A DNA stretch of 64,000 nt. It comes from Octopus vulgaris (lineage: Eukaryota). This document shows, in pieces, positions 3,626 to 60,122 of the stretch (position 1 is its first letter; every line of letters begins with the position of its first letter). Under the pieces are notes generated by a model. The model ran no database searches, was not told the DNA's origin, and saw nothing but the letters and a program-made list of their open reading frames with translations. The position numbers were made by a program, and so were the translations under genes. The stretch is taken from contig OX597830.1 of NCBI GenBank assembly GCA_951406725.2, positions 4,402,001 through 4,466,000 of the forward strand, given 5' to 3'.

Positions 3626-4020
3626 AAGGTGGTGAGCTGGCAGAAACATTAGCACGCCGGGCGAAATGCCCAGTGGTATTTCTTCTGCGTTACGTTGTGA
3701 GTTCAAATTCCGCCAAGGTCGACTTTGCCTTTCATCCTTTCGGGGTCGATAAATTAAGTACCAGTTACGCACTGGGGTCGATATAATCGACTTAATACCT
3801 ATGTCTGTCCTTGTTTGTCCCCTCTGTGTTTAGCTCCTTGTGGGTAATAAAGAAATAGGTATTTCTTCTGTTTTTATGTTCTAAGTTCAAATTCTGCAGA
3901 GGTCGACTTTGCCTTTCATCCTTTCAGGGTCGATAAATAAAGTACCAGTTGCTTACTGGGTCGATGTAATCGACTGGCCCTTCCTCAAAGGTTTTAGGCC
4001 TTATGCCTAGAGTAGAAAAG
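3626..4020 (+). mobile_element. SINE family B tandem pair (MetaSINE-like core)
   Basis: Head gagctggcagaa...gagttcaaattcc; core gactttgcctttcatcctttcggggtcgataaa..agtaccag; second unit from 3858 with a different tail. Confidence 0.85.
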
Positions 4021-8942: not shown

Positions 8943-9155
8943 AAAGAGACAAGTTGGTAGAATTGTTATGGCATCAGGCAAAATGCTCAGTGGCATGGCT
9001 TCTGACTATGTTCAGAGTTCAAATGCCACAGAGATTGAATTTGCTTTTCATCCTTTCAGGGTTGATAAAATAAGTACCAGTTGAGTACTGGGGGTGAATG
9101 TAATTGATTTATCTCCTTCCCCCAAATTTCAGGCCTTGTGCCTATAGTTGAAAGA
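8943..9155 (+). mobile_element. SINE family B (tail type ii)
   Basis: Core plus aaatttcaggccttgtgcctatag tail. Confidence 0.75.
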
Positions 9156-14682: not shown

Positions 14683-15475
14683 GCAGGTGTAGCTGTGTGG
14701 TATGAAGTTTGCTTCCCAATCACATAGTCCAGGGTTCAGTCCCACTGAGTGGCACCTAGGGCAAGTGTCTCCTACTATAACCTCAAGCCAACCAAAGCCT
14801 TGTCAGTGGATTTGATACTTGGAAACTGAAAGAAGCTCATCACATTTATATATATATATATATATATGTACAAAGAGAGAGAGAGAGAGAGAGAGAGGAG
14901 AAGAGAGAGGGTTAAAAACACCTTTGTGTCATGAATAACTATGGGATTGCACCTTGAAAGTTCCCCTCTAAGGCTCAAGTCCATACAAGGTTGTTTGTGG
15001 CAGAGCAGCAGTCACCCTTGCATACCAGTCACCTCTCGCCACACCACCAATGTTATCCATGGGAAAGGCAAAGGGGCCAATACAGCTTGGCACCTGTGAC
15101 ATTGCGACTCATTTCTACAGCTGAGGGAACTGGAGCAACATGAAATAAAATGTCTTGCTCAAGAACACAACACACAGCCCAGTCCAGGAATCAAACTCAC
15201 TACTTCACGGTTATAAGCCTGATGCTCAAACCACTGAGCCATGTGCCTTCACATGTGTGTGTCTTTGTTTGTTCTCCCCACCCCCACCCCCTGACAATTG
15301 GTGTTATTGTGTTTATTTTCCCATGACATAGCAGTTCAGCAAAAAGTGATCGATAGAACAAGTACCAGGCTTAACAAAAAAGAAGGAAGAGACAAGTACC
15401 AGGGTCGAATTGTTTGACTAGAAAATTCTTTAAGGCTGTGCCCCAGACCAAAGAAACAAGTAAAATATAAGAAAA
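14683..15475 (+). mobile_element. SINE family A interrupted by a minus-strand family D-like SINE (~14945-15252)
   Basis: Head 14683-14845, tail 15255-15475, insertion in the internal microsatellite. Confidence 0.65.
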
Positions 15476-18430: not shown

Positions 18431-18674
18431 TATATTTTGTTTTTGGATTTGGTTTGCAAGATTCTTTATATGAGTTTGTGTGTTGAAGCATATTCTGTTG
18501 TGTCTAGGGAGAGTCATTTTATTTTCGCGCCTTATAATTTAACACACTCACCGGTAAAATTTCCACTTATTTTTCCTTTAAAAAAAATTAAGAAAAAAGT
18601 GGAAATTTTACCAGTGAGTGTGTTAAATTATAAGGTGCGAAAATAAAATGACTCTCCCCAGACACAACAGAATA
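18431..18674 (-). mobile_element. Fold-back remnant of a PLE terminus related to the 34-37 kb element
   Basis: Palindrome 18491-18674. Tail 18431-18490 (tgcaagattctttatatgagtttgtgtgttgaagca) aligns with the reverse complement of 37382-37420. Confidence 0.75.
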
Positions 18675-19184: not shown

Positions 19185-19390
19185 AGAGTAATCACATAAA
19201 TGTGAAACAAGGTGGAAGAAATAGTACTTGAATACAAGAGGTAGAGTAATATGCTTTATTAAAAAGCAGCAAAAATATCACAGTAACTGGTACTCAGAGA
19301 TTCACATTCCCGTTTGTTGGTCAGTTTGTCTGACGATTGGGAGCGTGAAACTCCCAGTAGCAGTTTCTGTGATATTTTTTTCTGCTTTTT
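19181..19390. mobile_element. Fold-back insert with hammerhead-like core and left-side tail
   Basis: 19261-19324 is inverted at 19328-19390; follows (TA)n. Confidence 0.6.
19324..19367 (+). ncRNA. Degenerate minimal type I hammerhead ribozyme in a PLE-like terminal hairpin
   Basis: tgt-CTGACGA-ttgggagcgt-GAAAC-tccca-GTA-gcagttt; the inverted arm reads acg-ggaa-tgt-gaatc-tctga-gta and supplies intact stems II and III. Confidence 0.55.
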
Positions 19391-19602
19391 ACGTGTAGAT
19401 ACATATCATATGTATGTTTTTATATGACAGGCTTCTTTCAGTTTCCATCTCCCAAATCCACTCACAAGGCTTTAATTGGCCTGAGGCTAAAGTAGAAGAC
19501 ACTCACCCAAGGTGCCATGTGCTGGGGCTGAACCTGAAACCATGTGGTTGGGAAGCAAACTTCTTATCACACAACCATGCCTGCATCTATATATACATAC
19601 CA

Positions 19603-27924: not shown

Positions 27925-27931
<7 letters not shown>

Positions 27932-28028
27932 CGTTTTTGGATTTTGTCTGCAAGATTCTGTATGTGAGTTCGTGTATTGAAGCATATTCTGTTGTGTCTG
28001 GGGAAAGTCATTCTCTTTTGGTACCTTT
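27925..28028 (-). mobile_element. PLE-terminus relative (with tail)
   Basis: tgcaagattctgtatgtgagttcgtgtattgaagcatattctgttgtgtctgggg matches 18440-18520; abuts (TA)n. Confidence 0.7.
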
Positions 28029-28068
28029 TTGTAGAATTACCCTGGGTTTCACATCCATAAAGCGCTTA

Positions 28069-28414
28069 GCTTTATGGCGTGTCATCAGATTCCAAAACCT
28101 GTTGGCTTAAGGCCTCTTTAGACTATGGAGGAGGAAAGGACTTTGCAACAACAGGGGATTGTCTCCTTTTGGCTATTGATCGCAAGTGATCCTGTTATCT
28201 TGTGGGTTCCAATAGGCCAACAGGAATTTCCTGAAATACAAGCCTATTGGAAACCACAACAGGGTCACTTGTAAACGATAACTGATGAAAGACAGTCCCC
28301 TGTTGGTGGCGTTGAGTAGCAAGGTCCTTTCCTCCTCCAAAGCCTAGAGAGGCCACTTATTAAAGAGGCCTTAAGCCAACAAGTTTTGGGATCTGAGGGA
28401 TAATCCCATAAAGC
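28069..28414. repeat. Diverged fold-back element (~150-bp arms)
   Basis: 28069-28217 is inverted at 28242-28414 (e.g. gttggcttaaggcctcttta / taaagaggccttaagccaac; ggaggaggaaagga / tcctttcctcctcc). Confidence 0.75.
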
Positions 28415-30142: not shown

Positions 30143-31042
30143 CATATCTCAGTGCTAAATACTCATAAGATTGGATTTCTCTGAGTACACAACCGGAATA
30201 TTCTATTTGATACTTACCAACCATAGGGCAGAACCATGGGTTTATCCAACTCTATCTGGTGCATATCTTTCCAAGTACCTGATTCTATCTGAATCCTTAT
30301 TTTACTATTTATATATATATGTGTGTGTGAGGACATATATATAAATGTATGTATGTATGTGTGTGTGTATATATATATATGTATGTATGTCTTTGTGTTT
30401 GTCCCCTTCACCACCTGACGGCTGGTGTTGGTTTGCTTACATTCTCATAACTTAGTGGTACAGCAGAAGAGACTGATAGAATAAATACCAGACCTAAAAT
30501 GTTAGCACTAGGATTGACTTATTTGACTAAACCCTTCAAGGCAGAGCCCCAGCATGGCCGCAGTCCAATGACTGAAACAAGATTTTATGTATATATATAT
30601 ATATATGCATACATACACACACACATGCCTATATATATATATATGTATATACGCACACACACACATATGTATTTCATGTATTGAATATTTGTGTGTGTGT
30701 GTGTGTGAGTATACACACTCATACATATCACACAAATGTTTTCATGAACAACACAGTAGTTAATTCGTTATTTCATTTCTCGCTCAGCAGGTATTCTTCT
30801 GTGAAGAATCAGTGTAGCTCTTTAAGTCACTAACTCATTCTCTCTCTCTCTCTCATTGCTTCTAACAAATACAATTCTGTCCACTACTACAATGAAGCAA
30901 ATATTTTTCCAATCTTTGCTTTCTTGTTTTCCTCATGTTTCTTTTCACCTTCAGCTATTCTCCTTAATCAAGGAGGGTCTCACATCAGCTGAAGTATGGC
31001 ACAGAAAAGATATTTATATTTTCTTTTTTAATCTTGAAATAT

Positions 31043-32353: not shown

Positions 32354-34065
32354 AACTGGTATTTAGATTGATAGATAGACAGATATGCATATACACATAT
32401 ACATATATACACACATTTATATATATACACACACACATATATATACACACACACGCATATTATTAAATATTAATCAGGAGTCGCAGTTTAGAGAGAAATA
32501 CGAGAAAGGAACAGAAAATATACTAATAAAGAGAGAGAGTGTTCAAGACAGATGTAAAATAGACATACACACACATATGTATGTGTATATATATATTTGT
32601 GTAAATGTGTGTGTGTGTATATATGTGTATATGCATGTATCATGTCTGAAAAAGTGGCATGTTCATTGCTAAAGTGTCTTTGATCATAGTTCTGCTTCAT
32701 TTCATGACTGGAAAACAAAGATGGAACAGTCATGGCTGGACTGTCTTTTTATCATAGATCTGGTTAATCAAAACAAACAAGCAGAAGCAGTTAAATTGTC
32801 AGAATACAATTTAGCTTCCACAGTATTTTCTGAGTGGGACTAAAGTAGATGGAGAGGCAGCTTTATGCTCGGTGATGGAGTTAAAGCATAAAAGAAGCTG
32901 TGGGAACAAGCTTCTTGGAATGCAGGAGATACAGGGCTACTTTCATACGTAACACCATAATGCTGTATTCGATTTTCAGTCAGGAATTGGCAGAATATTA
33001 AAGAATCTCTCTTACAAAATGCTTTGTAGTATTTATTAAAGCTGAGTTCGAATCCTACTGAGATCAGATTTGCTTTTCAGTTTTCTGTGGGTCAACAAAT
33101 AACATAGTGAAGAGCCAGAGTTTTCAGAATATCAAAATAAACGCTTCACAGTATTTGTCTTGGTTCCTCACCCTCTGGTTTAAAACCTATTCTGGCCCTA
33201 TTTAATTTGTTATCTGGTTTAACATCACCACAAGGAACCTTGACTACCCTTAGTAAAATCCCACTGGAGCAAGCATTCAGCCTAGGTCTCTGGTTTGATG
33301 AGACCTTCCTCCAGTCTTGCAGGCCCTTCTATGGGTTATGAGTCACAGCCTCTACCTCCTCATTGTGACAAAATATATGAGTCTTGCTTTCCATTACTTT
33401 TATTCCAGTTCCTTTCAATTTAGGCCCCTTTTAAGGGTTCATACAGTTTTGATGGGGAGAAAACCGATTCTGAATAAAAGAGAAACTAAAATTGGACAAC
33501 TTCTGTAAAAATAACAATTGTTTATATTGATCAAAATTTTTGAATTCTTTTTTAAAACATTTATTACATGTATCCCAAACAATCCCATCATTGGTTTTCA
33601 ATGAGCCAGTCAGGGCTTCACTGCATTTATGATGTTGAAGATGACAAGGGATTGACTGTGAAATAGGGGCAAAACAAGAATCATCAGGGTTTTTGTTCAG
33701 AATCAGTGGTTTACCAATTTTCTCACCAATGCGCATTGCAGAAAGATATACATGCACACTCATATACAAACATATATGTATGACTGGCTGTATACATACA
33801 TATATATGTGTGTGTATATACACAAACAGGATGTATCTTTTCACCTTCAACAATAAAAAGCAGCCACCATATTTCATTCCATAACTGCCATCTCTGAAGA
33901 GCATAGGATTACATAATTGGGCTGTTACCTAACACTCCTAGTGCAAAAGTGATGAAGTGACTGGTAAGAGTGCCTGTATATACATATATATATGTTCATA
34001 TATATACACATATACATACATATATATATATACATTCATATATATATGTATATATATATATTTAT

Positions 34066-34680
34066 ATATTGTTATATTTCGGAATGGTCATATTGCCAGT
34101 TTAGCCAATAAAAACACACGCACTATATATTTGGTGTTATTTTGCTTCAGTGATATTTATTTTTTACATTAATCTTAATCTTATTTTGGCCAAAGTTCTT
34201 TCGTCACACTCCTGTGACCGCATCAGTGGTCCTTTGTTTTCTTCTCACTTACTTGTGTCTCTCCTTACTAACCGTCAGCCATTTTGTATTTCTATTGTAT
34301 GTCTTCATTTGCGCATGCTTATATCTCTATGTGCGTCTATGTTTATTTAGTGTGTGGGGGGGGATGCCTGTAATATTTGTATCTTCTGGTTATATACATT
34401 CTTGTAATTTGTATTTTGTTTTTGTTGTTGTTGCTTTTGTTCTAATTTTGTTCATGTGTTTACATCCACCCATTATTATCATTACATATGCTTGTATGTA
34501 TGTATAACAACAATATTAGTAATAATAATAATAAATCTAATCGAGAAAAAAAAAAAAAAAAAAAAGAATATACATATACATATATATATATATACATACA
34601 TATACATATACATATATATATATATATATATACATATATACACACATATATACACACATATATACACACATATATACATA
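34066..34680 (-). repeat. Left inverted pLTR (copy of the element's 3' end)
   Basis: Mirror ORFs 34150/34214 (+) and 37097/36937 (-) are almost identical. Visible differences: one substitution (ttttggcc vs tttcggcc) and simple-repeat lengths. Confidence 0.93.
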
Positions 34681-34681
34681 T

Positions 34682-36694
34682 GTACAGGCGCATGAGGAGA
34701 GAGAAAAGGTCCTCAATGCCCACATGATGATGTGGACAATTGTTCTGGGACCTCAGAAACGTACTGCAAAGAATTTCCAAGCCTGGAACAATGATATCCC
34801 GGCACTGTATGGACTTCGCAAGGACCATAAAGGTTTTACTGACCCTATAGCAGGACCACCAACAAGACCAGTCTGTGGAGCGAATATCGCTAGCAATTAC
34901 AGAATCTCCTACTTCCTCTCAATGATCATACGCCCTATAATCAGGATGTCACCTGATGTATGTGACAGCACAGAAGATCTCCTAAGCAGGATCAGTGACT
35001 GTAACAAAACTTGTGACTTGACAGGATGTATAGTAGGTAGCATGGATGTGGTACCCCTATACCCATCGATTGACGTAGATTTTGCAGTGGAGAAGTGCGT
35101 GGAGATGATCAACGAGAGCCAGGTGGAGTTCTGTAATGTCGACACAGAAGAACTGGGCCTCCTACTTAGACTGACATATAATAGTGAATACTTAGATAAA
35201 CATAATCTTAGTAGTTTCTGCCCCAGTAGATGTTTAAGAGGTAGACCGCCTACAATTACTTCTATGGCTAGGAAGACACATATAGAAAGATGGCGCGGAT
35301 GGACCAGAGCCATACGGAGCCCCGCAAATGTCCATCAGGTAAAGAAAATGATCGCACATGCACTAGGAGCTAGTATAAGAGTTACCCTAAAAGGCCACAC
35401 ATTTAAATTTAATAATAAAATATATTCCCAGGACGAGGGGGCAGCCATCGGTGTTAGTATCGCTGGTGATGTGGCCAACCTCTTCATGGTATGGTGGGAC
35501 AGAAGGCTTAAAGAATGCCTACTGCAGAAATCCATACTCGTAAACATGTACTCTCGCTATGTTGATGATATCAATATAGTAGTAAAGGCACCCCCACAAG
35601 AGAGTACTGTTGATATAGTAATAGAAACTAATACTATGGAGAGCATCCAGCAAATAGCTAACTCCATCCACCAGAGTATTAAGGTCACAATAGACTACCC
35701 CACTAAACACCCCAACCATAGACTACCAGTACTAGACACTGAACTCTGGCTAGAAATTGTGAAAAATAAAACCCAAATCCTTCATTCATACTATGCAAAA
35801 CCTATGGCCTCAAAATACCTGATCCACCGGAACTCAGCCATTGCGGGCAATGCCAAATTCAATATTTTGATGGCAGACCTCGTCAGAATAATGAGAAATG
35901 TGTCACGCATGTGCGAGCCTACAGAATTAAAGAGACACATACAGTATTTCATTCACCGCATGCAGTTCTCAGGTTACAGCCATAAAGAAAGGATCAGAGT
36001 ATACAAAGGAGCCATGAAGAAATTTGATAATATATTATGTAATGATAGGAATGGGATTTGCCCACTCTATAGGAACAAGTCATGGAACACTATAGAAAGG
36101 ACAAAAAAGAAAATAAGGAAGGCCAACTCTTGGTATGATAGCCATAAATACCAGAGTGTCATGTTCGTTGACACCACCCCTGGAGGTGAACTAGCGTACC
36201 GCTTTAGAAGGACCCTAGATAAACTTAAACTAAGAATTAAGGTTGTTGAAAAGCCAGGCAACCCTATCAGATCTATAATTGGTAGAACCTATCCTTTTAG
36301 TAGAACTCTCTGTACGGAAAACTATTGCACTGTATGTAGATTTAGCCCACAAACGAACTGTAAAGCCAGAAATGTGGTCTATAGTATAAGATGTATAGAG
36401 GGACGATGCAGTAACAAGACAGTAACATACGTAGGGGAAACTGCAAGAAGCATTGGTGAGCGGGTGAATGAACATTGGAGACAACTCAAGGAAGGTAAAA
36501 GCTCATCGATTCTGTACCAACACGCCGAACAAGAACACGGGGGATCAATCAATAACATAGAGATTAAGATATTGTCCACACATAGAACAGATGCAACAAT
36601 TAGACAAATTACAGAAGCTACACATATAATAGAAAATAAACCTAGCCTGAATAGAAAACTAGAATGGAGCAATAGCGCACACCACAACATATGA
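34682..36694 (+). CDS. Penelope-like retroelement polyprotein: reverse transcriptase + C-terminal GIY-YIG endonuclease (Naiad-like), 5'-truncated but uninterrupted
   Basis: 656-aa ORF from ATG 34724; frame stays open upstream to 34682 ([18 protein letters not shown]). PLE RT motifs [63 protein letters not shown]. Cys linker [17 protein letters not shown]: [27 protein letters not shown]...H..RQITEA..PSLN. Confidence 0.95.
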
Positions 36695-36754
36695 CAATAG
36701 TGGATCCTGCAAACATAATAAATACACAGGTAATTAAAGAAATAGAAATGAATA

Positions 36755-37440
36755 TCTATATATATGTATATGTGTATATATATGTATATGTATATGTGTA
36801 TATATGTGTGTATATATGTATATATATATATATATGTATATGTATATGTATGTATATATATATATGTATATGTATATTCTTTTTTTTTTTTTTTTTTTCT
36901 CGATTAGATTTATTATTATTATTACTAATATTGTTGTTATACATACATACAAGCATATGTAATGATAATAATGGGTGGATGTAAACACATGAACAAAATT
37001 AGAACAAAAGCAACAACAACAAAAACAAAATACAAATTACAAGAATGTATATAACCAGAAGATACAAATATTACAGGCATCCCCCCCACACACACACTAA
37101 ATAAACATAGACGCACATAGAGATATAAGCATGCGCAAATGAAGACATACAATAGAAATACAAAATGGCTGACGGTTAGTAAGGAGAGACACAAGTAAGT
37201 GAGAAGAAAACAAAGGACCACTGATGCGGTCACAGGAGTGTGACGAAAGAACTTTGGCCGAAATAAGATTAAGATTAATGTAAAAAATAAATATCACTGA
37301 AGCAAAATAACACCAAATATATAGTGCGTGTGTTTTTATTGGCTAAACTGGCAATATGACCATTCCGAAATATAACAATATCTGTTTCAACACACGACTT
37401 CACATAAAAAATCTTGCACAACAAATATTTAAACGTACTA
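36755..37440 (+). repeat. Right pLTR / 3' UTR with ~60-bp terminal tail
   Basis: Follows the stop codon. Contains an internal (TA/TG) microsatellite, a T-run and unique sequence; tail ctgtttcaacacacgacttcacataaaaaatcttgcac is absent from the left copy. Confidence 0.9.
37219..37386 (+). ncRNA. Candidate variant hammerhead ribozyme motif(s) in the pLTR
   Basis: CTGATGC (37221) + stem gtcaca-ggag-tgtgac + GAAA; second CTGAAGC (37297) ... GAAA-TAT-aaca-ATA-TC (37367-37382). Core position 9 is C instead of the canonical A. Confidence 0.3.
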
Positions 37441-37769
37441 TATATATATATATATATGTATACATACATATATATGTATATATATGTATATATATATATT
37501 TATATATATATATGTATACATACATATATATGTATATATATATGTATATAAATATATATATATATTTATATGTATATATATATATTATATATATATATAT
37601 ATGTATACATACATATATATGTATATATATATATACATATACATATATATGTATATATATATATACATCTACATACATATATATGTATAGATATATATAC
37701 ATATATATATATATACATCTACATACATATATATGTATAGATATATATACATATATATATATTGTATAG

Positions 37770-37885
37770 AGATCTGGTTAATCAAAACAAACAAGCAGAA
37801 GCAGTTAAATTGTCAGAATACAATTTAGCTTCCACAGTATTTTCTGAGTGGGACTAAAGTAGATGGAGAGGCAGCTTTATGCTCG

Positions 37886-37890: not shown

Positions 37891-37930
<40 letters not shown>

Positions 37931-37937
<7 letters not shown>

Positions 37938-38158
37938 CTTGTTTCAGTCATTGGACTGCGGCCATGCTGGGGCTCTGCCTTGAAGGGTTTAGTCAAATAA
38001 GTCAATCCTAGTGCTAACATTTTAGGTCTGGTATTTATTCTATCAGTCTCTTCTGCTGTACCACTAAGTTATGAGAATGTAAGCAAATCAACACCAGCCG
38101 TCAGGTGGTGAAGGGGACAAACACAAAGACATACATACATATATATATACACACACAC
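37931..38158 (-). repeat. ~230-bp inverted duplicate of ~30360-30588 (a specific SINE-tail copy)
   Basis: Shares the private mutations of the 30.4-kb copy; one substitution seen. Confidence 0.9.
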
Positions 38159-38160
38159 AC

Positions 38161-38605
38161 ATTACACATAAATGCCTCACACTAAGAGGGACATAAGTCA
38201 TTACTACCAAAATTACACTAATCATACCTAATGCAGTTCTTCAAAGCAAGACATTTAAAAAATGAATTTAGTTCTGTATCACCTGTGATTTCACATTTAA
38301 TGTATAAAATTACGTCTATGGTCATCAGCTGATGACCATAGACTAAATTCATTTTTTAAATGTCTTGCCTTGAAGAACTGCATTAGGTATGATTAGTGTA
38401 ATTTTGGTAGTAATGACTTATGTCCCTCTTAGTGTGAGGCATTTATGTCTAATAATGCCCTCTATACAATATAAATATAATTAATATGTTCAAAAGGAAA
38501 AAAATATTTTCGAATTCTTTTCTCTTATGAGGTTTTTCACGCTAACTACCTGATAATTTCTTGTTAAGATTCCTTATTAAGAAGTTATCCTTAATTGTTA
38601 AATTT
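38161..38605. mobile_element. Fold-back insert with perfect 30-bp inner palindrome and right-side tail
   Basis: Arms 38161-38272 / 38341-38453; gtctatggtcatcagctgatgaccatagac at 38314-38343. Confidence 0.65.
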
Positions 38606-38680: not shown

Positions 38681-38752
38681 CATATATGTATATATATATA
38701 TATCTATATACATGTGTGTGTGAGTGTAAAATGCAAACGGCTGTGATCGGTT

Positions 38753-39148
38753 CAGGAGTGGCTGTGTGGTAAGTAGTTTGCTTACCAACCACATCGTTTG
38801 GGGTTCAGTCCCACTGCGTGGCACCTTGGCCAAGTGTCTTCTACTCTAGCCTTGGGCCAACCAAAGCCTTGTGAGTGGATTTGATAGACAGAAACTGAAA
38901 GAAGCCTGTCATATGTATATATATATGTGTGTGTGTGTGTGCGTCTATGTTTGCTTCCTCCTCCACTATCGCTTGATAACCAATGTTGATGTGTTCACGT
39001 CCCCGTAACTTAGCGGTTCAGCAAAAGAAACCGAAAGAATAAGTACTAGGTTTATAAAGAATAAGTCCTGTAGTCGACTCGTTCATCTAAAGGCGGTGCT
39101 CCAGCATTGTTGTGGTCAAATGACTAAAAAAATACAAGAATAAAAGAA
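38753..39148 (+). mobile_element. SINE family A, full length (tRNA-like head, internal microsatellite, aaaaga tail)
   Basis: A-box-like tggctgtgtggtaag and B-box-like ggttcagtccc; many copies in the window. Confidence 0.85.
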
Positions 39149-42100
39149 TAATATATTTACATGTGTGTGTGTGCATTTTATGTCCATTTTTTTAGTGCTC
39201 GGATGGGTAAAACAACTGCATATAAAGAGGCATTGTTTTTTACAGTTGAATGCCTTTCCTGCCACTAACCTTTACCAGATTTTGTAAGTGAGGGATTTCT
39301 CATTCCATTTATTTTTCAAAGAACAGAGGAAGCAGTTGATTTGTTGAGAGGGAATTGTCAAGAATGAACATTGTTTGTAGCTCAGAGCTTTCTTTATGCA
39401 AAACACAGGCTGTAAGTATTCACACACACACTTTTATATAAGGTGCCATAAAGACATTTTAGATTAGTATTTTCATAATATTTAATACTCTTAATCTCTT
39501 GTTTGCTCATGTAATAACTTTTCACACATAATGGGGAAAAAATCACCTGTAAGGGAAAGAAATATAAAGATTATAATTAAGAAGCCATTTAAGTTTAAGA
39601 ATAGAAACCAACTTATATGTCAGTCCTCAGTGTGTGAGTGCGAGTATACATATATATATATATATATATATATATGTATTTATATATATATATGTATTTA
39701 TATATATATATGTATTTATATATATATATATATGTATTTATATATATATATATATATTTATATGTATATATATATATATATATATATCCATCGATCAAAT
39801 CTTACTCACAAGGAAGCTGTAAAGAGAATCCATATTATTGAGTCAAACTTTCTTGCTTCTGGTCTCTGTTGTTATAAAGATTACACACACACACACACAC
39901 ACAGACACACACATATATATCAGCCACACATGCACACATGATGCATATACGTATCTATAAAAAGATTGGAGAGTTTGTAGTGAAATTATTGACATGATTG
40001 AGATATAAGTAAACCATTTCAGAATTTATTATCAAGTCTTGCTCTATGTGTGTGTGTGTGAGATGAGTATTATACAGTTTCCATCAATCAAATTTTCATA
40101 AGTGAGGGACAATGGTAGAAGATTCTTGCTGAAGGTATCACTCAGTAAAAATGAGCCCTCACCCGTGTAGCCCTGAGTCACGCTTCTTAGCCTCTCATCA
40201 ATAACTTTACCATCCAATTAGATCTCTACTCATTGAATTCATTCATGTCATAACAATATAAGATACAAATGTAACTTTTAGTCTGTAGCTATTAAAGGGA
40301 CTGAGCTGGCCTGGAATTATTGGCATGTCAGATAAAAGGCTTAGCAGCATTATCTCCATCTTTATACGCTGAGTTCAAATTCCTGCAAGGTTGACTTTAC
40401 CTTTCATCCTTTCAGGGTTGATAAAATAAGTACCAGTTGAAAGCTGAGGTCAGTGCAATGAACTTGCTTCCTCCCCTAAATTTCCGCAGAAAGGATTACA
40501 TGTCTGCCTGGTTACGTTTGGCCTGAGGTTAAACATCAACATTATTGTTCACACACGTGTAATGAAAACTTATTTGAAGTGGGTGAGAAGTTAAATTAAT
40601 TCCTTACCATTTCCAGGTTTGCAGTGTTTAGGTTTGAAATAGTGAAGTGGGACAGAAGTGATGAAGTAATTTTAATTTTGGTTTCTCCCAGATATTTTTT
40701 CACATAATTACTTCCTTTTTCATTTGTTCATGTTTGCATGGAAATGTAGAGCTGAGATTACATGGAATAAATTACTTTTGAATAAAGTAGCATTTTCCTT
40801 GTTACCTAATTTTAATTTAGCAACAATTGAGAAATTCTTAAGATTTTATTGCAATGTTTTACTTCATAAATGCAATTTGTAAATAAATGAAAATAATTAA
40901 AATAACAATGAAAAAAAACTGAAAAGACATAATTAGCTTTTTAAGTGGAACTATACATATTAGAACCTGTATTAAAATCAGAGCCTGTACGTTGATCCTT
41001 TGAGTAACTCGCTGAAAACAAATATCATTGCAGAATATGTCAAGTATGTTTAAACATAGATCCACTTATAAGCTAGAATTGAAGGATATTGAAACCTGAT
41101 CCTAGAATATTTGTTTGCTTAGAGGCAAAAATGCAGTTGGCATCGTGCCATGTGTTATTCTATTTGATTGTGTTTTTGTTTTTTAAGAGTTGCATAAACT
41201 TCATTAATGACTCTTTAGCCATTAACATAGCAAATCTTATTTAGTTACTTTTAACAATAATTCCTCGCATTTCTTTCTTCATTTTTTTTTTTTTAATGTC
41301 TGATGATGTTTGTTGCAGAAACTAGTTTCAAAAATGGATAAATGAGAGAGTGTGGCATCATTTTATTATAAGATATAAATCTTATTCTGAATATAGTGAA
41401 GTAAAGTAGATTAGTTTATTTCTTTGGTTCCCGTCGGCTGTACGGCATCTCGATGTGTCATACGAAATAAGTTTGGTGATAATTTGGGAGGAATATTTCA
41501 AATTAATGAAAAACAAATAGTTCTAAGTAATGGCAAGTAATAAAATGACAGAATCCCCAAACCAGATAATTAAGGGGAAAAAAATAAGCATTGAGAAGAG
41601 GTTGGTGAATAGTATTTGAGATTGTAGCAAAGATTGACAAAATTGTTTAGAGAAGAGTTAAATTGAAGTAAAGAGCTTTGCTGATGTTGTTATATAGCCA
41701 ACTCTGGTGGTTTCTATTGACAGCGTCTCATGTAAAGATGTTAATAAGTAAGAAGTCTGAAAGCTGATGTTGTAATCCAATTATTTTACTACTAAACAAT
41801 CTTCACTACAGTTCTAGTTTAGCAATTTGAAAAAGAAGGTGAATAAGTTAAATGGATCATAACAAAATTTGAATTCTGTTCAATAGAGAGGAGTTTTTAC
41901 AATTTTAACTACAGCAACAGCATTTGTGTGAAGAAGTGAATTAAAATTTGGACTGTGGTGTGTGTGTGTGTGTGTGTGAGTGTAATTGATGGCAGAATCA
42001 CTAATGTTTTAGCAATATTCTTTGTGCACAGAGATGAAATCTTGCAAAGACATGATGCTACTTTTCAACCTTCTGAGTTCATTGAAACAAAACCCGACAT

Positions 42101-44541: not shown

Positions 44542-44755
44542 TAAGGCAGTGAGCTGGCAGAAACGTTAGCATGCCGGGCGAAATGCTTTGCGGTATTTCA
44601 TCTTTATGGTCTGAGTTCAAATTCTGCTGAGGTCAACTTTGCTTTCATCCTTTCGTGGTTGATAAATTCAGTACCAGTTGCATACTTGGGTCAATCTAAT
44701 CAACTGGCCCCTTCCTCCAAAATTTCAGGCCTTGTGCCTAGAGTAGAAAAGAATA
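44542..44755 (+). mobile_element. SINE family B (tail type ii)
   Basis: Full head, core and ggccttgtgcctagagtagaaaagaat tail. Confidence 0.85.
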
Positions 44756-46934: not shown

Positions 46935-47155
46935 GAGTGGAGTCTGGCAGAATCGTTAGCATGCCGGGCGAAATGCTTAGAGGTATTTCATCTGCTGCTA
47001 CATTCTGAGTTCAAATTCCGCTGAGGTCGACTTTGCTTTTCATCTTTTTAAGGGTCAATTAAATAAGTACCAGTTATGCATTGAGGTCAATGTAATCGAC
47101 TTAATTCCTTGTTTGTCTCCTCTATGTTTAGCCCTCTGTGGGCAATGAAGAAATA
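46935..47155 (+). mobile_element. SINE family B (tail type i)
   Basis: Ends tttagccctctgtgggcaatgaagaaata. Confidence 0.82.
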
Positions 47156-47650: not shown

Positions 47651-48470
47651 CTATGAAATAATGAACTTGATGTATACAGTACTCAAGTGCACAACATTAT
47701 GTATGTTTGTATGAGTGTGTGTATTAATACAGTTTAGCTAATGTAACACACTGTGCCGGTCCATAGATCACCTTGATTTTTTAATTTCATTACAGATGTT
47801 TTGTTATGTATTTGGGCAGGCAGTACACTTAATTATAAAAGCCTCCAGTAAATCTAGATGCCAAAAATAGGTTCCTATAAAAGACTGGTATCCTATCTCG
47901 ACCGAGATTTATTTCGCATGTACTTAATGCTGTGAGATTTGTTTCACATGTACTTAAAGCATTGAAACTGGAGCTTGGCACCAATCCTTAAAAGAACCAC
48001 CTGCTGCTAAATGGTGCATTGATATTCATATAAATGGCACAGTCTTGCCTTTACAGTTAAGAGGGTTGCCTCACAATTATGTGGTTTCAGGTTCAGTCCC
48101 ACTGTACAACATCTTGGTCAAGAATCTTCTGTTATAGCCCCAAGCAGACGAAAGCCTTGCGTGATGGAAACAAATAGAAGCCCATTGTATATGTGTACAT
48201 ACCATACACACATGCATTTACTTTTATATATTCAGTATGTGTATACACACACACACACACTCACACTCGCACATGTGCACACACATCATGTATCTATAGG
48301 TTTGTATATGTATATATACATATATATACACTCATCTGATGTTTTTAACTGGCCAAGAAATTCATGTAGAGCATTGATCAAACTTTGATGTGCATGAAAC
48401 TTGGCTCTTCAGTCACCTGTGTAGCTTACTGCCAATTTAAAGAAATAACAAACTGTCATATATATATATA

Positions 48471-48866
48471 TACTCTTTTACTCTTTTACTTGTTTCAGTC
48501 CTTTGACTGTGGCCATGCTGGAGCACCACCTTTAGTCGAGCAACTCGACCCCAGGACTTATTCTTTGTAAGCCCAGTACTTATTCTATCGGTCTCTTTTG
48601 CCGAACCGCTAAGTTACGGGGACATAAACACACCAGCATCGGTTGTCAAGCAATGCTAGGGAGACAAACACAGACACACACACACACATACATACATATA
48701 TACGACAGGCTTCTTTCAGTTTCCGTCTACCAAATCCACTCACAAGGCATTGGTCGGCCCGAGGCTATAGTAGAAGACACTTGCCCAAGGTGCCACGCAG
48801 TGGGATTGAGCCCGGAACCATGTGGTTGGTAAGCAAGCTACTTATCACACAGCCATTCCTGCGCCT
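48471..48866 (-). mobile_element. SINE family A, full length, young
   Basis: Reverse complement of the family; nearly identical to 56257-56666. Confidence 0.88.
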
Positions 48867-49706
48867 ATATATACAAAATTTAGAGGACTGACCTGAATGT
48901 ATATAACCAGAACAGATAAGAAAGGTGAGGTGAAAGTGTAGATGTTTATTGCATTTACTCTCTCACTTTGTTTCTCTTATATGTTCTGTTCCCCCACACA
49001 CACTCACAGACACACACACATGACCAAAGCATTTGTGTGTGTGTGTGTGTGTGTGCTGTTGATATGATATTCAAAAAAATATGACATTGAGATGAATTTA
49101 TTTAATCCAAGTTTACTTGTTTAGAATTGATATTAAATCTTCTGTGTTTGCCTTCAAGACAGAAAGATGAAGTAGAGTGCATAAAAAAGGAAGAGAAGCA
49201 CTTGTTAAGGAAATAGAAAGAAAGAGAAAAAGTAGCCCAGCTCCACTGCCTGTGGAATGCTTTTACCAAAACCTGATTGCTAACACATGACGGCAAGGAA
49301 GAAACAGTGCACTCAAAAACACATTTGTCCATTTTAAAAGTGATATTTACTTTTTTCAAACCACAGAACAAGAAAGTCTGATGCATAATTAAGGAAGAAG
49401 AATAGACTTAATTAAAGCAATATGAGTGATATATACAATTTTGCTCAAAGGCAATTTGCATTGTGCCCTAAGCTTTCTTCTCAGTAGATACCGCCATCCA
49501 ATGTACCAGTTGACATTGCACAGGTCCACAGTATAAAACACATCAACAAACGGGGATTTAGCATCCCTTTATTTTCATCTCTGACATTTCATAACGTTAG
49601 CATTTATATTGTAGCTGACATCTTTGAGTCAATGATATAATCATTTAGACAGCAGTGCTTTCCTTAACAACAACATCACAGCAGTTTCATGATGAATGGT
49701 GACGAC

Positions 49707-51440: not shown

Positions 51441-52224
51441 ATAGATAGATATATAATGTGTGTGTGTGTGTGTGTGTAAGTATACATTACACCAGCTTAT
51501 TAAGATGGTAAAAGCTAACATTGTGTCACCATAACATTGTCAGTCACATAATGAAATTCTATAGTTAGCAGCTGCAGGAATTTTTACTTCTCTAATCTAT
51601 GATATAATGCGTCCGTCTTTCGGTGCTTCAGAACAAAAAAATCAAAGAGAAAATATTTTGCTTTGAGAAAGAAATCAACTAAATAAACATTCTGAGCACA
51701 TCATAGAATATATTGTGTGACATTAGATATTTGGACCATACTGAATAAATAGAGTTCTCCTATCAATTAATATATTCCTCATTGTCATCGGCACCAATTT
51801 CACAACAATTCTTGATGCATTTTGATGCTCTACAGTACATCGTATAATCAACATGACAACTGTGTCTCATATTTCTGGAAAATTCAACCGTATCATTTCA
51901 CGTCCACCTTTATCTTGTTTTATCATGAAAATTTTCAATCACTTTTCCTCCCACCAGGTGGCACTGGTATCTGCCATCCTTTACCCTGTATGATAATTAT
52001 TCTACTAAAGGAATAATTGATATCTCATAAATCATAACCATGTCATATGATCTGTTTTCCAGTTACTGTAAACAGCCAGCATACCTCAGTTGGTTGAGCA
52101 TCAGGTTTTTATGTAACAAGGGACCTGAAGGGTCATGTGTTCAAGTTCCTCAACTGCTGTGCATAATCATTTAACGGCAGTGCCTCATCACAGCCACAAT
52201 TTATGGACTGAAACAAATAAAAGA

Positions 52225-52355
52225 ATTCTGTTGTGTCTGGGGAGAGTCATTTTCTTTTTGTGCCTTATCATGTAACACACTCACTGGTAAAATTTCACTT
52301 TTTTCTTATTTTTGTTGTCCTAAAATTTTCATTGCATCTTGCAACCTTTTCATTA
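52225..52355 (-). mobile_element. PLE-terminus relative (no tail)
   Basis: attctgttgtgtctggggagagtcat...aacacactcactggtaaaattt matches 18492-18575. Confidence 0.7.
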
Positions 52356-56054: not shown

Positions 56055-56666
56055 ATACTCTTTTACTGTGGCCATGCTGGAGCACCGCCTTTAGTCGAGC
56101 AAATCAACCCCAGTATCTATTCTTTGTAAGCCTAGTACTTATTCTATCAGTCTCTTTTGCCGAACTGCTATGTTACAGGGATGTAAACACACCAGCATCG
56201 GTTGTCAAGCGATGTTAGGGGAACAAATACAGACACACAACCATAGACTCCCACATACTCTTTTATTCTTTATTCTTTTACTTGTTTCAGTCATTTGACT
56301 GCACATGCTGGAGCACCGCCTTTAATCGAGCAACTCGACCCCGGGTCTTATTCTTTGTAAGCCCAGTACTTATTCTATCGGTCTCTTTTGCCGAACCGCT
56401 AAGTAACGGGGATGTAAACACACCAGCATCGGTTGTCAAGCAATTCTAGGGGGACAAACACAGACACACAAACACACACACATATATATATATACATATA
56501 TACGACGGGCTTCTTTCAGTTTCCGTCTACCAAATCCACTCACAAGGCATTGGTCGGCCCGAGGCTATAGTAGAAGACACTTGCCCAAGGTGCCACAGAG
56601 TGGGACTGAACCCGGAACCATGTGGTTGGTTAGCAAGCTACTTACCACACAGCCACTCCTACGTCT
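56055..56666 (-). mobile_element. SINE family A full copy (56257-56666) plus adjacent tail-only copy (56055-56242)
   Basis: Direct repeat of atgctggagcaccgccttta...; possible TSD acatact at 56253-56259 / 56668-56674. Confidence 0.85.
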
Positions 56667-58847
56667 AACATACTGAGTTAACAAACCTCCTCTAACAAAT
56701 TATCCATGCAATCAGTAAAAAGAAACTCCCTTTATGGATGTTTAAGATATAAAAGGGAGATAAATCCAATAAGATCATGTAATTAAAATAAAGACAAGAG
56801 AAATGAGAGAGGATCCAGTCTTTAAACTGAAAAAATACAACTGAAAGCAAAAAGAAGGAAAAACTTAATTCTCATAATTATTGTTGGTTTAATGTCCACT
56901 TTCCCATGGCTGCATGGATCAAATGGCAGGTTTACTGTGGTCAAAGGTGCTGCATGTTGCTAGCCTTCACTTGTTTCCAAGTCAGGTAATATTTCCTCCA
57001 TGGCTTTAACATATTTTCACAGGAGACAGGAAATGAGGAACACCGCTTGTGTGAAGGTGATACTTGTTTACGACTACAGTATGATGCAAAGACACAAGAC
57101 ACAAATACACACATGTGCACACAAGTGCACATGCATATGCGCACACACGCGCACACATGCACACACACACACATACACATGATGAACTTTCTTTCAGTTT
57201 CATCTATCAACTCCACTCCTGAGGTGGCTGGCAGTGAGACTTGAACCTAAAACTCCATGGTTGGGAAGCACACTTACTAACTCTGCAACTATTAGTATAC
57301 GGTCATCTTTGACCTACTAAATGGCAAAGTAGTCAGTCTAGGCTTAATCAATCAGGACTAGCATGAGACTAGACAATAACAACAACAACAGCAACCTATT
57401 TTTTAAAAAGAATCAATAGAAACCTTATCCGAAAAGAAAAAAAAAATCTCCTGATTTTAATCCCTGACAGAAATTTGGGGAAAAATGAAGAAAAGAAGAG
57501 GAATAGGGAACCATTCCATGAAGAATATAACAGACATTTGTTTTCATTTTTAATGAGTTTTGTTCAAATGATTAAACGATACAATCAATTCTTAATATCT
57601 TTAAAAGCAAATTCTTCTTTCCAACTACAACAACAACAATACAAAATGGAAAGAAGAAATTCTTTTAAAAAAAATTGTTTAAGTCTGTGACAAATATCTC
57701 AACTTTAAAGGAATGTTTTATAAAAGCCTAAAATAATGAATAAATGTGTAATCTTGCTTACTCAGTTGTTTTTCTATTGTTAAAAGAAGGTAACATGTGG
57801 TTGGTTGTTTATTGACAGGTTGACATGGGCAGCAGACATTGGAGGCGGCGGTGCGGGGTTGGAGGGGGGCGGAAACTTTAAAGGAGCAGATAAACAATAA
57901 CAATAAATAGTGAAAAAGACAAAAACATCATGAAAACAAAACATGTATACAGCTATTGAAAAGAGAAATAAGGAGGGAGAGTGAGAGAGAATGAGATGAA
58001 ATTGAATGGAAAATAAGAGGGAGGGTGTTGGGGGGGGACGAGAACAATTGATTGATTGGTTATAAGTAAGTGTACAGTGAAATCAAAATAATCTACTGGA
58101 GTTACTAAGATTACCACAAAGGACCTAAATTGTTTTTAGTTGTTATTAAGATGCACGCGCGTGTGTGTGTGTGTGATACAAGGATATAAATAATGGTCAT
58201 TACATATTATTGTAGTAAATTCAGCTTACAGCTGTTTCTGATAATCACTGTAGGTTCGTTCATTGATTGGTTCACTCAATCAGTCCATTGATTGATTGAG
58301 AAGAGCTGAACTACTTGAAACAACTAATACTGTATTTATATATATATATATATATATATCATCATCATCATCATCCTCATCATCATTTAGCGTCCATTTT
58401 CCATGCTAGCATGGGTTGGACGGTTTAACTGGGGTCTGTGAAGCCGGAAGGCTTCATCAGGCCCAGTCAAATTTGGCAGTGTTTCTACAGCTGGATGACC
58501 TTCCTAATGCCAATATACAATATATATACAATATATATACATTTCTCGCTGGATGAAGTATTTGTTACTCTTTTTGTTTTCTGCAATTTTATTTTTGGAT
58601 CTTCTATCTAAATGAAGAATTTTCCTCTGTCTGGCTGTTTTTCTCTCTACAAAATGGAAAGTTGCATTATGGAACTGTCATTTTAACAAGCTTTTTTATT
58701 AATTTATCACCCAACGACATACATCTGCACCACCGTATATTCCTGTACCAGTTTTTGTGTGTCCTATGAGAGGAGTCGATGCTAGCTGTGTCGAAACAAT
58801 TGTTGTGATTAATAATATATTCTCGTATATTCCATCTTCTGTCCTTC

Positions 58848-59369: not shown

Positions 59370-59510
59370 TAATATTTAGATTCTGTATAATGTTTGTAGG
59401 ATTCTTGATATGAACTTGTGCATTGAAGCATATTTTAGTTTGTTTTGGGAGGGTCATTATGCCAATAATAAACACATGCACTGGTTCTATTTTGTTTCTC
59501 TATTATTTAT
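59370..59510 (-). mobile_element. Diverged PLE-terminus relative
   Basis: ttgaagcatattttagtttgttttgggagggtcattatgccaataataaacacatgcact aligns with 34066-34125 and with the tail. Confidence 0.6.
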
Positions 59511-59974
59511 TTGTTAAATGGTTAATTATTTAATCAATTGATTGTTTGGTCAGTTAGTTAAGATTGTTAGAATCCTTTCATCACCGTTCTCAACTCCATC
59601 AGTGTCATTTCATTTCTACTACAGATCTGCTTCAAGTCTCTAATACATATTCTCTAAATAAATTCTCTAAATATATCCTCTAAATAGATTGTCTGCTTAC
59701 ATCATAACATGGCTTAAGTTTGTTCGATATTCTTAGTTTCCAAACTTATTAATTCTTCCTGTGGGTATTTTGCTATGGAATCAGCAGCAGTAGCAGACAG
59801 AATTGCTACATAAGTAATATACCAACGCACACAAAAAAAGAGTGGAACAGTATATTATGGTTATAGTCAATATACATACATATGTATGTGTGTATGTATG
59901 TGCATGTTCATATATATATATATGTGTGAATATGTATATGTGTGAGTGTGTGAATATATATATATATAAACATT

Positions 59975-60122
59975 ATTTCAAATTCTGCTGAGGTCGACTT
60001 TGCCTGTCATCCTTTCAGGGTCGATAAATAAAGTACCAGTTTCGAACTGGGGTCGATATAATCAACTTAATCCCTTTGTCTGTACCCTCTATGTTTAGCC
60101 CTTTGTGGGCAGTAAAGAAATA
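59975..60122 (+). mobile_element. SINE family B, 5'-truncated (tail type i)
   Basis: Ends tttagccctttgtgggcagtaaagaaata. Confidence 0.8.

Follow-up and report, generated by a model that had tools for sequence, protein, structure and literature searches.

Within an insertion of a Penelope-like element (PLE) in the genome of Octopus vulgaris, an inverted copy of the 3' end of the element stops at position 37381, and the long copy facing it continues for another 57 bases. The question raised by this locus is what these bases are and why copies end at one position or the other. The window, i.e. the whole stretch of 64,000 nucleotides which was analyzed, is located on contig 17 of the sampled genome (2.8 Gb) and consists of AT-rich animal DNA dense in (TA)n repeats. 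A preliminary description of this DNA treated the feature as an unnamed cis-element and did not recognize it as a published one. The stretch 37382-37438 is the 'tail' already described for PLEs; it is real and ordinary for such elements. Judging from the sequence comparisons given below and from published in vitro work on another PLE, its two edges are quite probably the two internal sites at which the reverse transcriptase starts.

The element and its inverted arm

The insertion is composed of the following parts:

34066..34564, minus strand: tail-less inverted arm, which repeats 36880-37381 (99-100% complementary) and faces the long copy head-to-head
34697..36694, plus strand: ORF of the family-1 copy, 5'-truncated, about 275 codons short of longer copies
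36695..37346, plus strand: remaining 3' untranslated region of the family-1 copy, containing a TA/TG microsatellite (about 36746-36880)
37347..37381, plus strand: conserved 35 nt ahead of the boundary (ATGAC..TCC..A.A.A..AAUAU); tail-less copies end at 37381
37382..37438, plus strand: tail of the family-1 PLE copy, 57 nt, to which a TA-rich microsatellite adjoins
37439..37776, no strand: TA-rich microsatellite flank, the insertion target; a similar stretch (33980-34065) is found on the opposite side

Within the window, 34066-34363 is complementary to 37084-37381 (298 nt, 99%) and 34357-34564 is complementary to 36880-37087 (208 nt, 100%). By this pairing of 34066-34564 with 36880-37381, the stop of the inverted arm at 37381, which had been noticed before, is exact, and exactly the last 57 bases (37382-37438) are missing from the arm. 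The outer end of the arm is 34066, where TA-rich DNA adjoins. In the long copy, the 3' untranslated region reaches 37381 as ...AACAATAT and is followed by the 57 further bases, which are AC-rich (A 42%, C 25%, G 7%, T 26%).

The copy at 34566-37438 had been called an intact element. It is 5'-truncated compared to two longer genomic copies (loci L180 and L188), both of which run about 825 nt further 5' and have a common end point. One of these longer copies has an unbroken frame of 945 codons with a start near MENKVEC. Upstream of the ORF, no direct pseudo-LTR was seen in either of the two.

The ORF (34697-36694) matched the Pfam family RVT_1 with 17.6 bits, which is below the curated cut-off of 29.6, and GIY-YIG (residues 560-605 of 665) with 18.7 bits, which is under the curated cut-off of 22.6. 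A total of 226 homologues were obtained at E ≤ 1e-10, a few of which carry PF00078 or PF01541; the best homologue is a hypothetical protein of 803 aa labelled Octopus vulgaris (98% identical). A CX4CX2C motif (CTENYCTVC) is situated directly ahead of the GIY-YIG sequence VVYSIRC...YVGET. A single ORF encoding a reverse transcriptase and a GIY-YIG nuclease is present as in PLEs, and the insertion architecture is PLE-typical. Moreover, a CX2-5CxxC linker before GIY-YIG and (TA)n targeting were found, both features of the Neptune/Nematis type. According to excerpts of PMC8557442, the (TA)n preference and this linker are known for Neptune, Nematis, Naiad and Hydra elements, which the octopus element resembles in its CX4CX2C motif before GIY-YIG and in the strong (TA)n bias of family 1. 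The element is not a Naiad, since its nuclease is C-terminal.

Tail-bearing and tail-less ends in the window

From each of four copies, the 60 nt ahead of the boundary plus the tail were used for a BLAST search against the window. Tail-bearing ends were found at 37438 (+), 18434 (-), 27928 (-) and 59372 (-), tail-less ends at 34066, 18674 and 52225, corresponding to module positions 60, 60 and 59 of 60. All three tail-less ends lie within 1-2 nt of the point from which the four tail-bearing ends continue for 56-58 nt. Besides the family-1 copy, the following ends were delineated:

18434..18489, minus strand: tail of a family-2 copy, 56 nt
18490..18674, no strand: two short family-2 arms in head-to-head position, of which the direct one (minus strand, about 18490-18576) bears the tail
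27928..27983, minus strand: tail of a third lineage (copy C)
52225..52283, minus strand: tail-less 3' end of a family-2 copy, ending ...ACAGAAT, 2 nt short of the boundary
59372..59429, minus strand: 58-nt tail of copy E, which belongs to an old third family and has its pre-tail part at 59430-59490

The inverted arm of the 18.4-kb pair (plus strand, about 18589-18674) stops 0-1 nt from the boundary. Between about 43 nt ahead of the boundary and the end of the tail, copy C matches family 2 with 86% identity; farther upstream, the two are unrelated. Among the homologous termini listed in the preliminary description, those given as 18431, 27925 and 59370 are indeed tails, with ends at 18434, 27928 and 59372 by BLAST; the one at 52225 is a tail-less end. 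The boundary which it had assigned jointly to the arm of the 18.4-kb hairpin and to the copy at 52225 was recovered at module positions 60 and 59, and its statement that diverged families share one boundary now extends, by alignment and BLAST, to at least three lineages.

Two observations were made at these ends. The family-2 pair at 18434-18674 forms a near-perfect hairpin of 90 bp and gives sub-threshold matches to several microRNA precursor families (e.g., MIR6288 with 53.5 bits versus 74); hairpin RNAs could arise from PLE insertions built in this way. A tRNA-like stretch (…TCAGTTGGTTGAGCATCAGG…GGGTCATGTGTTCAAGTTCC…) is found at 52060-52170, shortly beyond the tail-less end of the family-2 copy at 52225.

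Conservation of the terminal module

Identity between the families was determined from an alignment. Among the non-coding parts, conservation is highest in the first 30 nt of the tail (70-87%). Identity is 50-89% in the last 28 nt of the tail and 51-86% in the 35 nt preceding the boundary; more than 35 nt ahead of the boundary, it is 12-45%. The tail is, therefore, conserved above the flanking untranslated region; a lack of such conservation would, according to the preliminary description, have refuted its reading. Because the 35 nt before the boundary are conserved as well, the conserved module (about 90 nt) straddles the breakpoint.

Two short motifs had been reported as conserved. The first, TTCAACACAC, is exact at 37386 and 18478 only, with one mismatch at 27972 and two in the 59.4-kb copy. 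The second, AATCTTGCA, is exact at 37410, 18455 and 27949, and the 59.4-kb copy has AATCCTACA instead; a fourth exact AATCTTGCA, at 42038, was discarded as unrelated sequence. As bare words, neither motif is more frequent in the window than expected by chance. The homology of the whole module between families, in contrast, is above chance (E values of 1e-7 to 1e-29 by BLAST in the window). The GAAA at 37367-37370 is replaced by AGAC or AAAC in other families, which agrees with the earlier remark that it is not conserved.

When copy C (27984-28027) was compared to the family-2 loci L061-L090, only about the last 100 nt were found in common, the upstream parts being unrelated. From sequence, this looks like an exchange or capture of the terminal module. 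Partners of LINEs and SINEs of the stringent type share their 3' ends, and likewise copy C and family 2 share only the last 90-100 nt, a pattern which, by this analogy, would be expected of a module recognized by a reverse transcriptase. In contrast to the stringent partners, the enzyme here is a PLE reverse transcriptase, and there are two start points, not one.

Genome-wide distribution of the end positions

Exact patterns were counted genome-wide and reversed patterns served as control. At least 40 genomic copies are 100% identical to the window across 37300-37440 (141 nt). The family-1 24-mer ending at 37381 gave 4831 exact matches, which are followed by the first 8 bases of the tail in 1919 cases, by ATAT in 2372 cases and by neither in 540 cases. 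Every copy sampled carries the anchor beside the boundary and, since copies were chosen by the exact 24-mer next to it, ends farther upstream are invisible to these counts. For family 2, a pattern of 26 nt gave 4318 matches. The reversed control patterns of families 1 and 2 had 0 matches genome-wide.

The first 100 family-1 sites on contig 1 were sorted by hand, and the 8 sites fitting neither list were read individually; in 2 of these the tail was present but differed in its first bases, and 6 were tail-less. In total, 52 of the 100 sites have the tail and 48 do not. Tail lengths were read for 45 tails without bias to full length: 32 tails are 56-59 nt long (...AAACGTA(C)), 9 are 47-54 nt long and 4 were unmeasurable (three with 1-base insertions, one cut by the fetched stretch). 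The targets of family 1, according to the genome-wide ends, are mostly (TA)n. One insertion in unique, non-microsatellite DNA (L092/L166) has an 11-bp target duplication and ends in ...AACAATAT and ...AAACGTAC; by this duplication, both end points are fixed to the base.

Thirty family-2 sites were inspected, of which 19 carry a tail and 11 do not. The breaks occur after GAAT or GAATAT, and the flanks are unrelated and mostly non-microsatellite. Copies of family 3 are about 80% alike; in a head-to-head pair of this family, the short arm ends at query position 91, i.e. at the boundary. A histogram of genomic ends had been proposed earlier as a check of the feature. In the 4831 family-1 matches as well as in family 2, the ends are non-random and fall on two discrete points, and in the family-1 counts and 41 measured pairs (see below) these two points bound the tail. 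There is next to no chance that the pattern arose by accident or by an assembly artefact, considering that the same two ends recur in thousands of copies on many contigs and the reversed controls are empty.

Two-armed insertions

Most insertions consist of two arms in head-to-head arrangement. On contig 1, 42 head-to-head pairs of family 1 were collected. Twenty of these come from the fully classified first 69 Mb; the other 22 were picked out manually from the lists reaching to 153 Mb, an incomplete set in which partners with non-TA flanks are unlisted. Exactly one tail is present in 40 of the 42 pairs, two tails are present in 2 pairs, and a pair with zero tails did not occur. Compared to 50% one-tail pairs under independent choice, this corresponds to p = 2e-10 (n = 42); the first 20 pairs alone (19/20 one-tailed) give p = 2e-5. 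Family 2 has exactly one tail in 6/6 pairs. The insertion in the window likewise has the extension at one outer end and an inverted 5'-truncated copy adjacent to it, the arm ending at 34066 without the tail and the long copy at 37438 with it.

Both arms could be measured in 41 pairs. Their outer ends (82/82) fall at 37381-37385 or at 37427-37439. The inner junctions are variable and mostly asymmetric, usually with an overlap of 1-6 nt; identical inner coordinates on both arms, i.e. exact palindromes, occur in 5/41 pairs, and one more pair is off by 2 nt. Simple fold-back copying as the general route to the inverted arm was rejected in view of the mostly asymmetric junctions, the few palindromes and the fact that either arm can be the longer one. 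Another prediction, namely that the tail-bearing arm should be the shorter one, which is expected if one cDNA displaced the other, was not borne out: the tail was on the shorter arm in 20 pairs and on the longer one in 12, and in 6 pairs both arms had the same length (sign test, p = 0.22).

Rare variants were compared between arms. Within pairs, 30 variants are common to both arms and 76 are found on a single arm; between arms of different pairs, 1 is common and 136 are on a single arm. Since the arms of a pair share rare variants, both are likely to stem from one event and one template source. Alternatively, the shared variants could be due to two RNAs of one source locus or to gene conversion between the arms. 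Family 2 may be a short non-autonomous element; homology among its 30 copies extends over at most about 360 nt, the longest being the head-to-head pairs themselves.

Several pairs (L049, L165 and L191; nearby L045, L183 and L173) have their inner junction at element position 37158 or no more than a few bases away, and in three pairs it is a perfect palindrome. Fold-back or template switching may be favored at this position.

RNA structure and ribozyme searches

The tail alone folds with 0 kcal/mol in two families, which is no better than shuffled sequences, and the 110 nt around the boundary gave fold z-scores between -0.1 and +2.2 versus shuffles. A potential long-range helix GUGUGUU/AACACAC of 7-8 bp was considered and dropped as unsupported; copies A and B could form it, E could do so in part, and C lacks it, with fold energies no better than those of shuffles. 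In Rfam, no ribozyme was reported at E ≤ 10 for 37090-37440 or 27960-28200, and nothing in the whole window scored above the gathering score. At E ≤ 1, the whole window had 280 sub-threshold matches; no ribozyme is among the 150 matches listed, almost all of which are microRNA-like and map to microsatellites and to the 18.5-kb hairpin.

Family 1 contains a hammerhead-like CUGAUGC...GAAA at 37221-37248 (plus strand), in which A9 is changed to C and for which Rfam is silent at E ≤ 10. A second motif of this kind belongs to copy C:

28037..28100, minus strand: hammerhead-like motif of copy C with CUGAUGA (28088-28082), a stem II of 12 bp and GAAA (28050-28047), found by eye, no Rfam report

Its expected cut is after 28038, 54 nt ahead of the boundary. 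A hammerhead cutting at the boundary itself (37381/37382) was not found, and the upstream cores would cut at least 54 nt short of it. The same two ends are found in 30/30 family-2 copies, although none of these has a CUGANGA...GAAA in the 110 nt next to the boundary.

Comparison with published PLE tails

According to Frangieh et al. 2024 (PMC11167929), the purified Poseidon protein of Anolis carolinensis nicks both strands of the DNA and extends them. In vitro, it initiates reverse transcription inside an AC-rich stem-loop, at two internal sites next to each other, and the stretch between these start sites is the genomic tail (PMC11167929). The octopus copies resemble Poseidon (PAc) in having an optional extension at one outer end with two discrete end points, in being AC-rich, in their AT-rich targets, in the use of both strands resulting in head-to-head arms, and in a hammerhead-like motif which is close by, not at the end points. 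They differ in several details. In families 1, 2 and 3, the tail measures 56-58 nt versus 30-40 bp in print, a difference in size, not in kind. It is located in non-coding DNA after the ORF, whereas the Poseidon tail lies 111-118 nt into the ORF, inside a pseudo-LTR; the two long octopus copies are without a direct pseudo-LTR. The octopus tail is AC-rich but predicted to be unstructured, in contrast to the Poseidon stem-loop. Finally, AUAU stands at both octopus end points and insertion is mainly into (TA)n, whereas no homology is reported for Poseidon.

PLE insertions with an adjacent inverted 5'-truncated copy were described by Craig et al. 2021 (excerpts of PMC8557442). In the rotifer Adineta vaga, Arkhipova et al. 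2013 found a tail of 31 bp on one of the inverted pseudo-LTRs (excerpts of PMC3846280). Pen2a_Av and other Penelope families of this rotifer are, in the same excerpts, similar to the octopus element in that an inverted 5'-truncated copy stands beside the full copy; their tail is shorter, and palindromic inner junctions are seen in some insertions there, as in 5/41 pairs and one near case here. The one-tail rule is not countable in the rotifer families because of their low copy numbers. A 2026 repeat annotation of Octopus vulgaris includes Penelope-like families (PMC13282606), and a term search of the main text found neither 'tail' nor 'hammerhead'.

For specialists, the PLE tail is textbook knowledge, and its finding here opens no new question. 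The value of the data set lies in thousands of very young copies with two end points defined to the base. The near-strict one-tail rule, the probable common template source of the arms and the tail of 56-58 nt are added to what is known. These counts constrain models of PLE insertion, and the compact RNA module of 90 nt could serve as a template for in vitro insertion assays.

Models for the two end points

The preliminary description left three roles for the tail, namely a priming, an RNA cleavage or a transcript-start site. A priming site fits the published work, as the two-point ends match Poseidon. A transcript start is unlikely because the tail is at the 3' outer end of every copy, and cleavage, whether by a hammerhead or by the non-hammerhead structure suggested earlier, found no support. 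If the edges of the tail are start sites, each of the two nicked target strands would, in a single insertion event, prime on RNA of the same source, one strand per site, so that exactly one tail would result per insertion. Template switching over a few overlapping bases would then connect the two cDNAs, the point of junction being variable, and the conserved 90-nt module would act as the binding and start signal for the enzyme. A more detailed version of this model is tentative: a two-headed complex on one RNA may make each two-armed insertion in one event, using each start site once, one per nicked strand. The tail length would then equal the spacing of the active sites, and the 90-nt module would be a portable start cassette captured by unrelated non-coding families.

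Alternatively, a target of (TA)n or AT-rich DNA, once nicked, could simply anneal by its 3' end to AUAU in the RNA, with no dedicated signal. Both end points finish with AAUAU or GUA(C)UAU in all four lineages, 2372 of the 4831 family-1 ends fuse directly to ATAT, and 2 of the 45 tails (length 47) stop at an internal AAATAT, all as expected from such microhomology. We nevertheless regard it as rather doubtful. The L092 insertion into unique DNA, with a target beginning TTGT and the 11-bp duplication, has the same two end points, and 4 of the 11 tail-less family-2 ends break after GAAT into AT-free flanks. Furthermore, the conserved module far exceeds 4 nt, annealing alone leaves one tail per pair unexplained, and the Anolis element starts in vitro at a site which is not homologous to the cut DNA (PMC11167929). 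The ends could also be created after synthesis, if the GIY-YIG nuclease made a cut staggered by about 57 nt in a transposition intermediate and one end kept the extension. One tail per insertion (40/42) would follow naturally from a staggered cut, this resolution is called 'most likely' in a passage of PMC8557442, and the tail was reportedly needed for recognition by the nuclease in earlier work, as cited by PMC11167929. The later in vitro work places the edges of the tail on the start sites of reverse transcription (PMC11167929), and the variable, mostly asymmetric inner junctions suit two separate cDNAs better, which makes a nuclease origin of the ends improbable.

Self-cleavage of the RNA at 37381/37382 by a hammerhead or another ribozyme, leaving some templates tail-less, would be in line with the hammerhead-like cores upstream (37221-37248 and, in copy C, 28088-28047) and with hammerheads being common in PLEs, as stated in passages of PMC8557442 and PMC11167929. 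These cores are situated 130-160 nt (family 1) and 54-100 nt (copy C) ahead of the boundary, and all 30 family-2 copies have the same ends with no core within 110 nt. At E ≤ 10, no ribozyme was reported by Rfam; the GAAA at 37367 is unconserved, and the tail is predicted to be unstructured (0 kcal/mol). A mixed pool of cut and uncut RNA would not give one tail per pair, as seen in 40/42 pairs, and hammerhead mutants left insertion unaltered in vitro (PMC11167929). Self-cleavage as the origin of the two ends is, hence, highly improbable.

Other repeats in the window

A SINE-like family, the core of which is GTTCAAATTCCGC.GAGGTCGACTTTGCCTTTCATCC, is represented seven times in the window:

3673-3808: SINE-like copy
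3857-3992: SINE-like copy
8989-9124: SINE-like copy
40345-40480: SINE-like copy
44587-44721: SINE-like copy
46981-47053: SINE-like copy
59948-60083: SINE-like copy

Another dispersed repeat family, the members of which are 74-94% alike, occurs in both orientations:

14683-14869: copy of the second dispersed repeat family
19384-19590: copy of the second dispersed repeat family
38746-39188: copy of the second dispersed repeat family
48434-48868: copy of the second dispersed repeat family
56073-56667: copy of the second dispersed repeat family

In addition, an inverted repeat of 270 nt (30357-30626 and 37893-38162, 96% complementary) brackets the PLE insertion from several kb off; it may represent the ends of another element into which the PLE landed.
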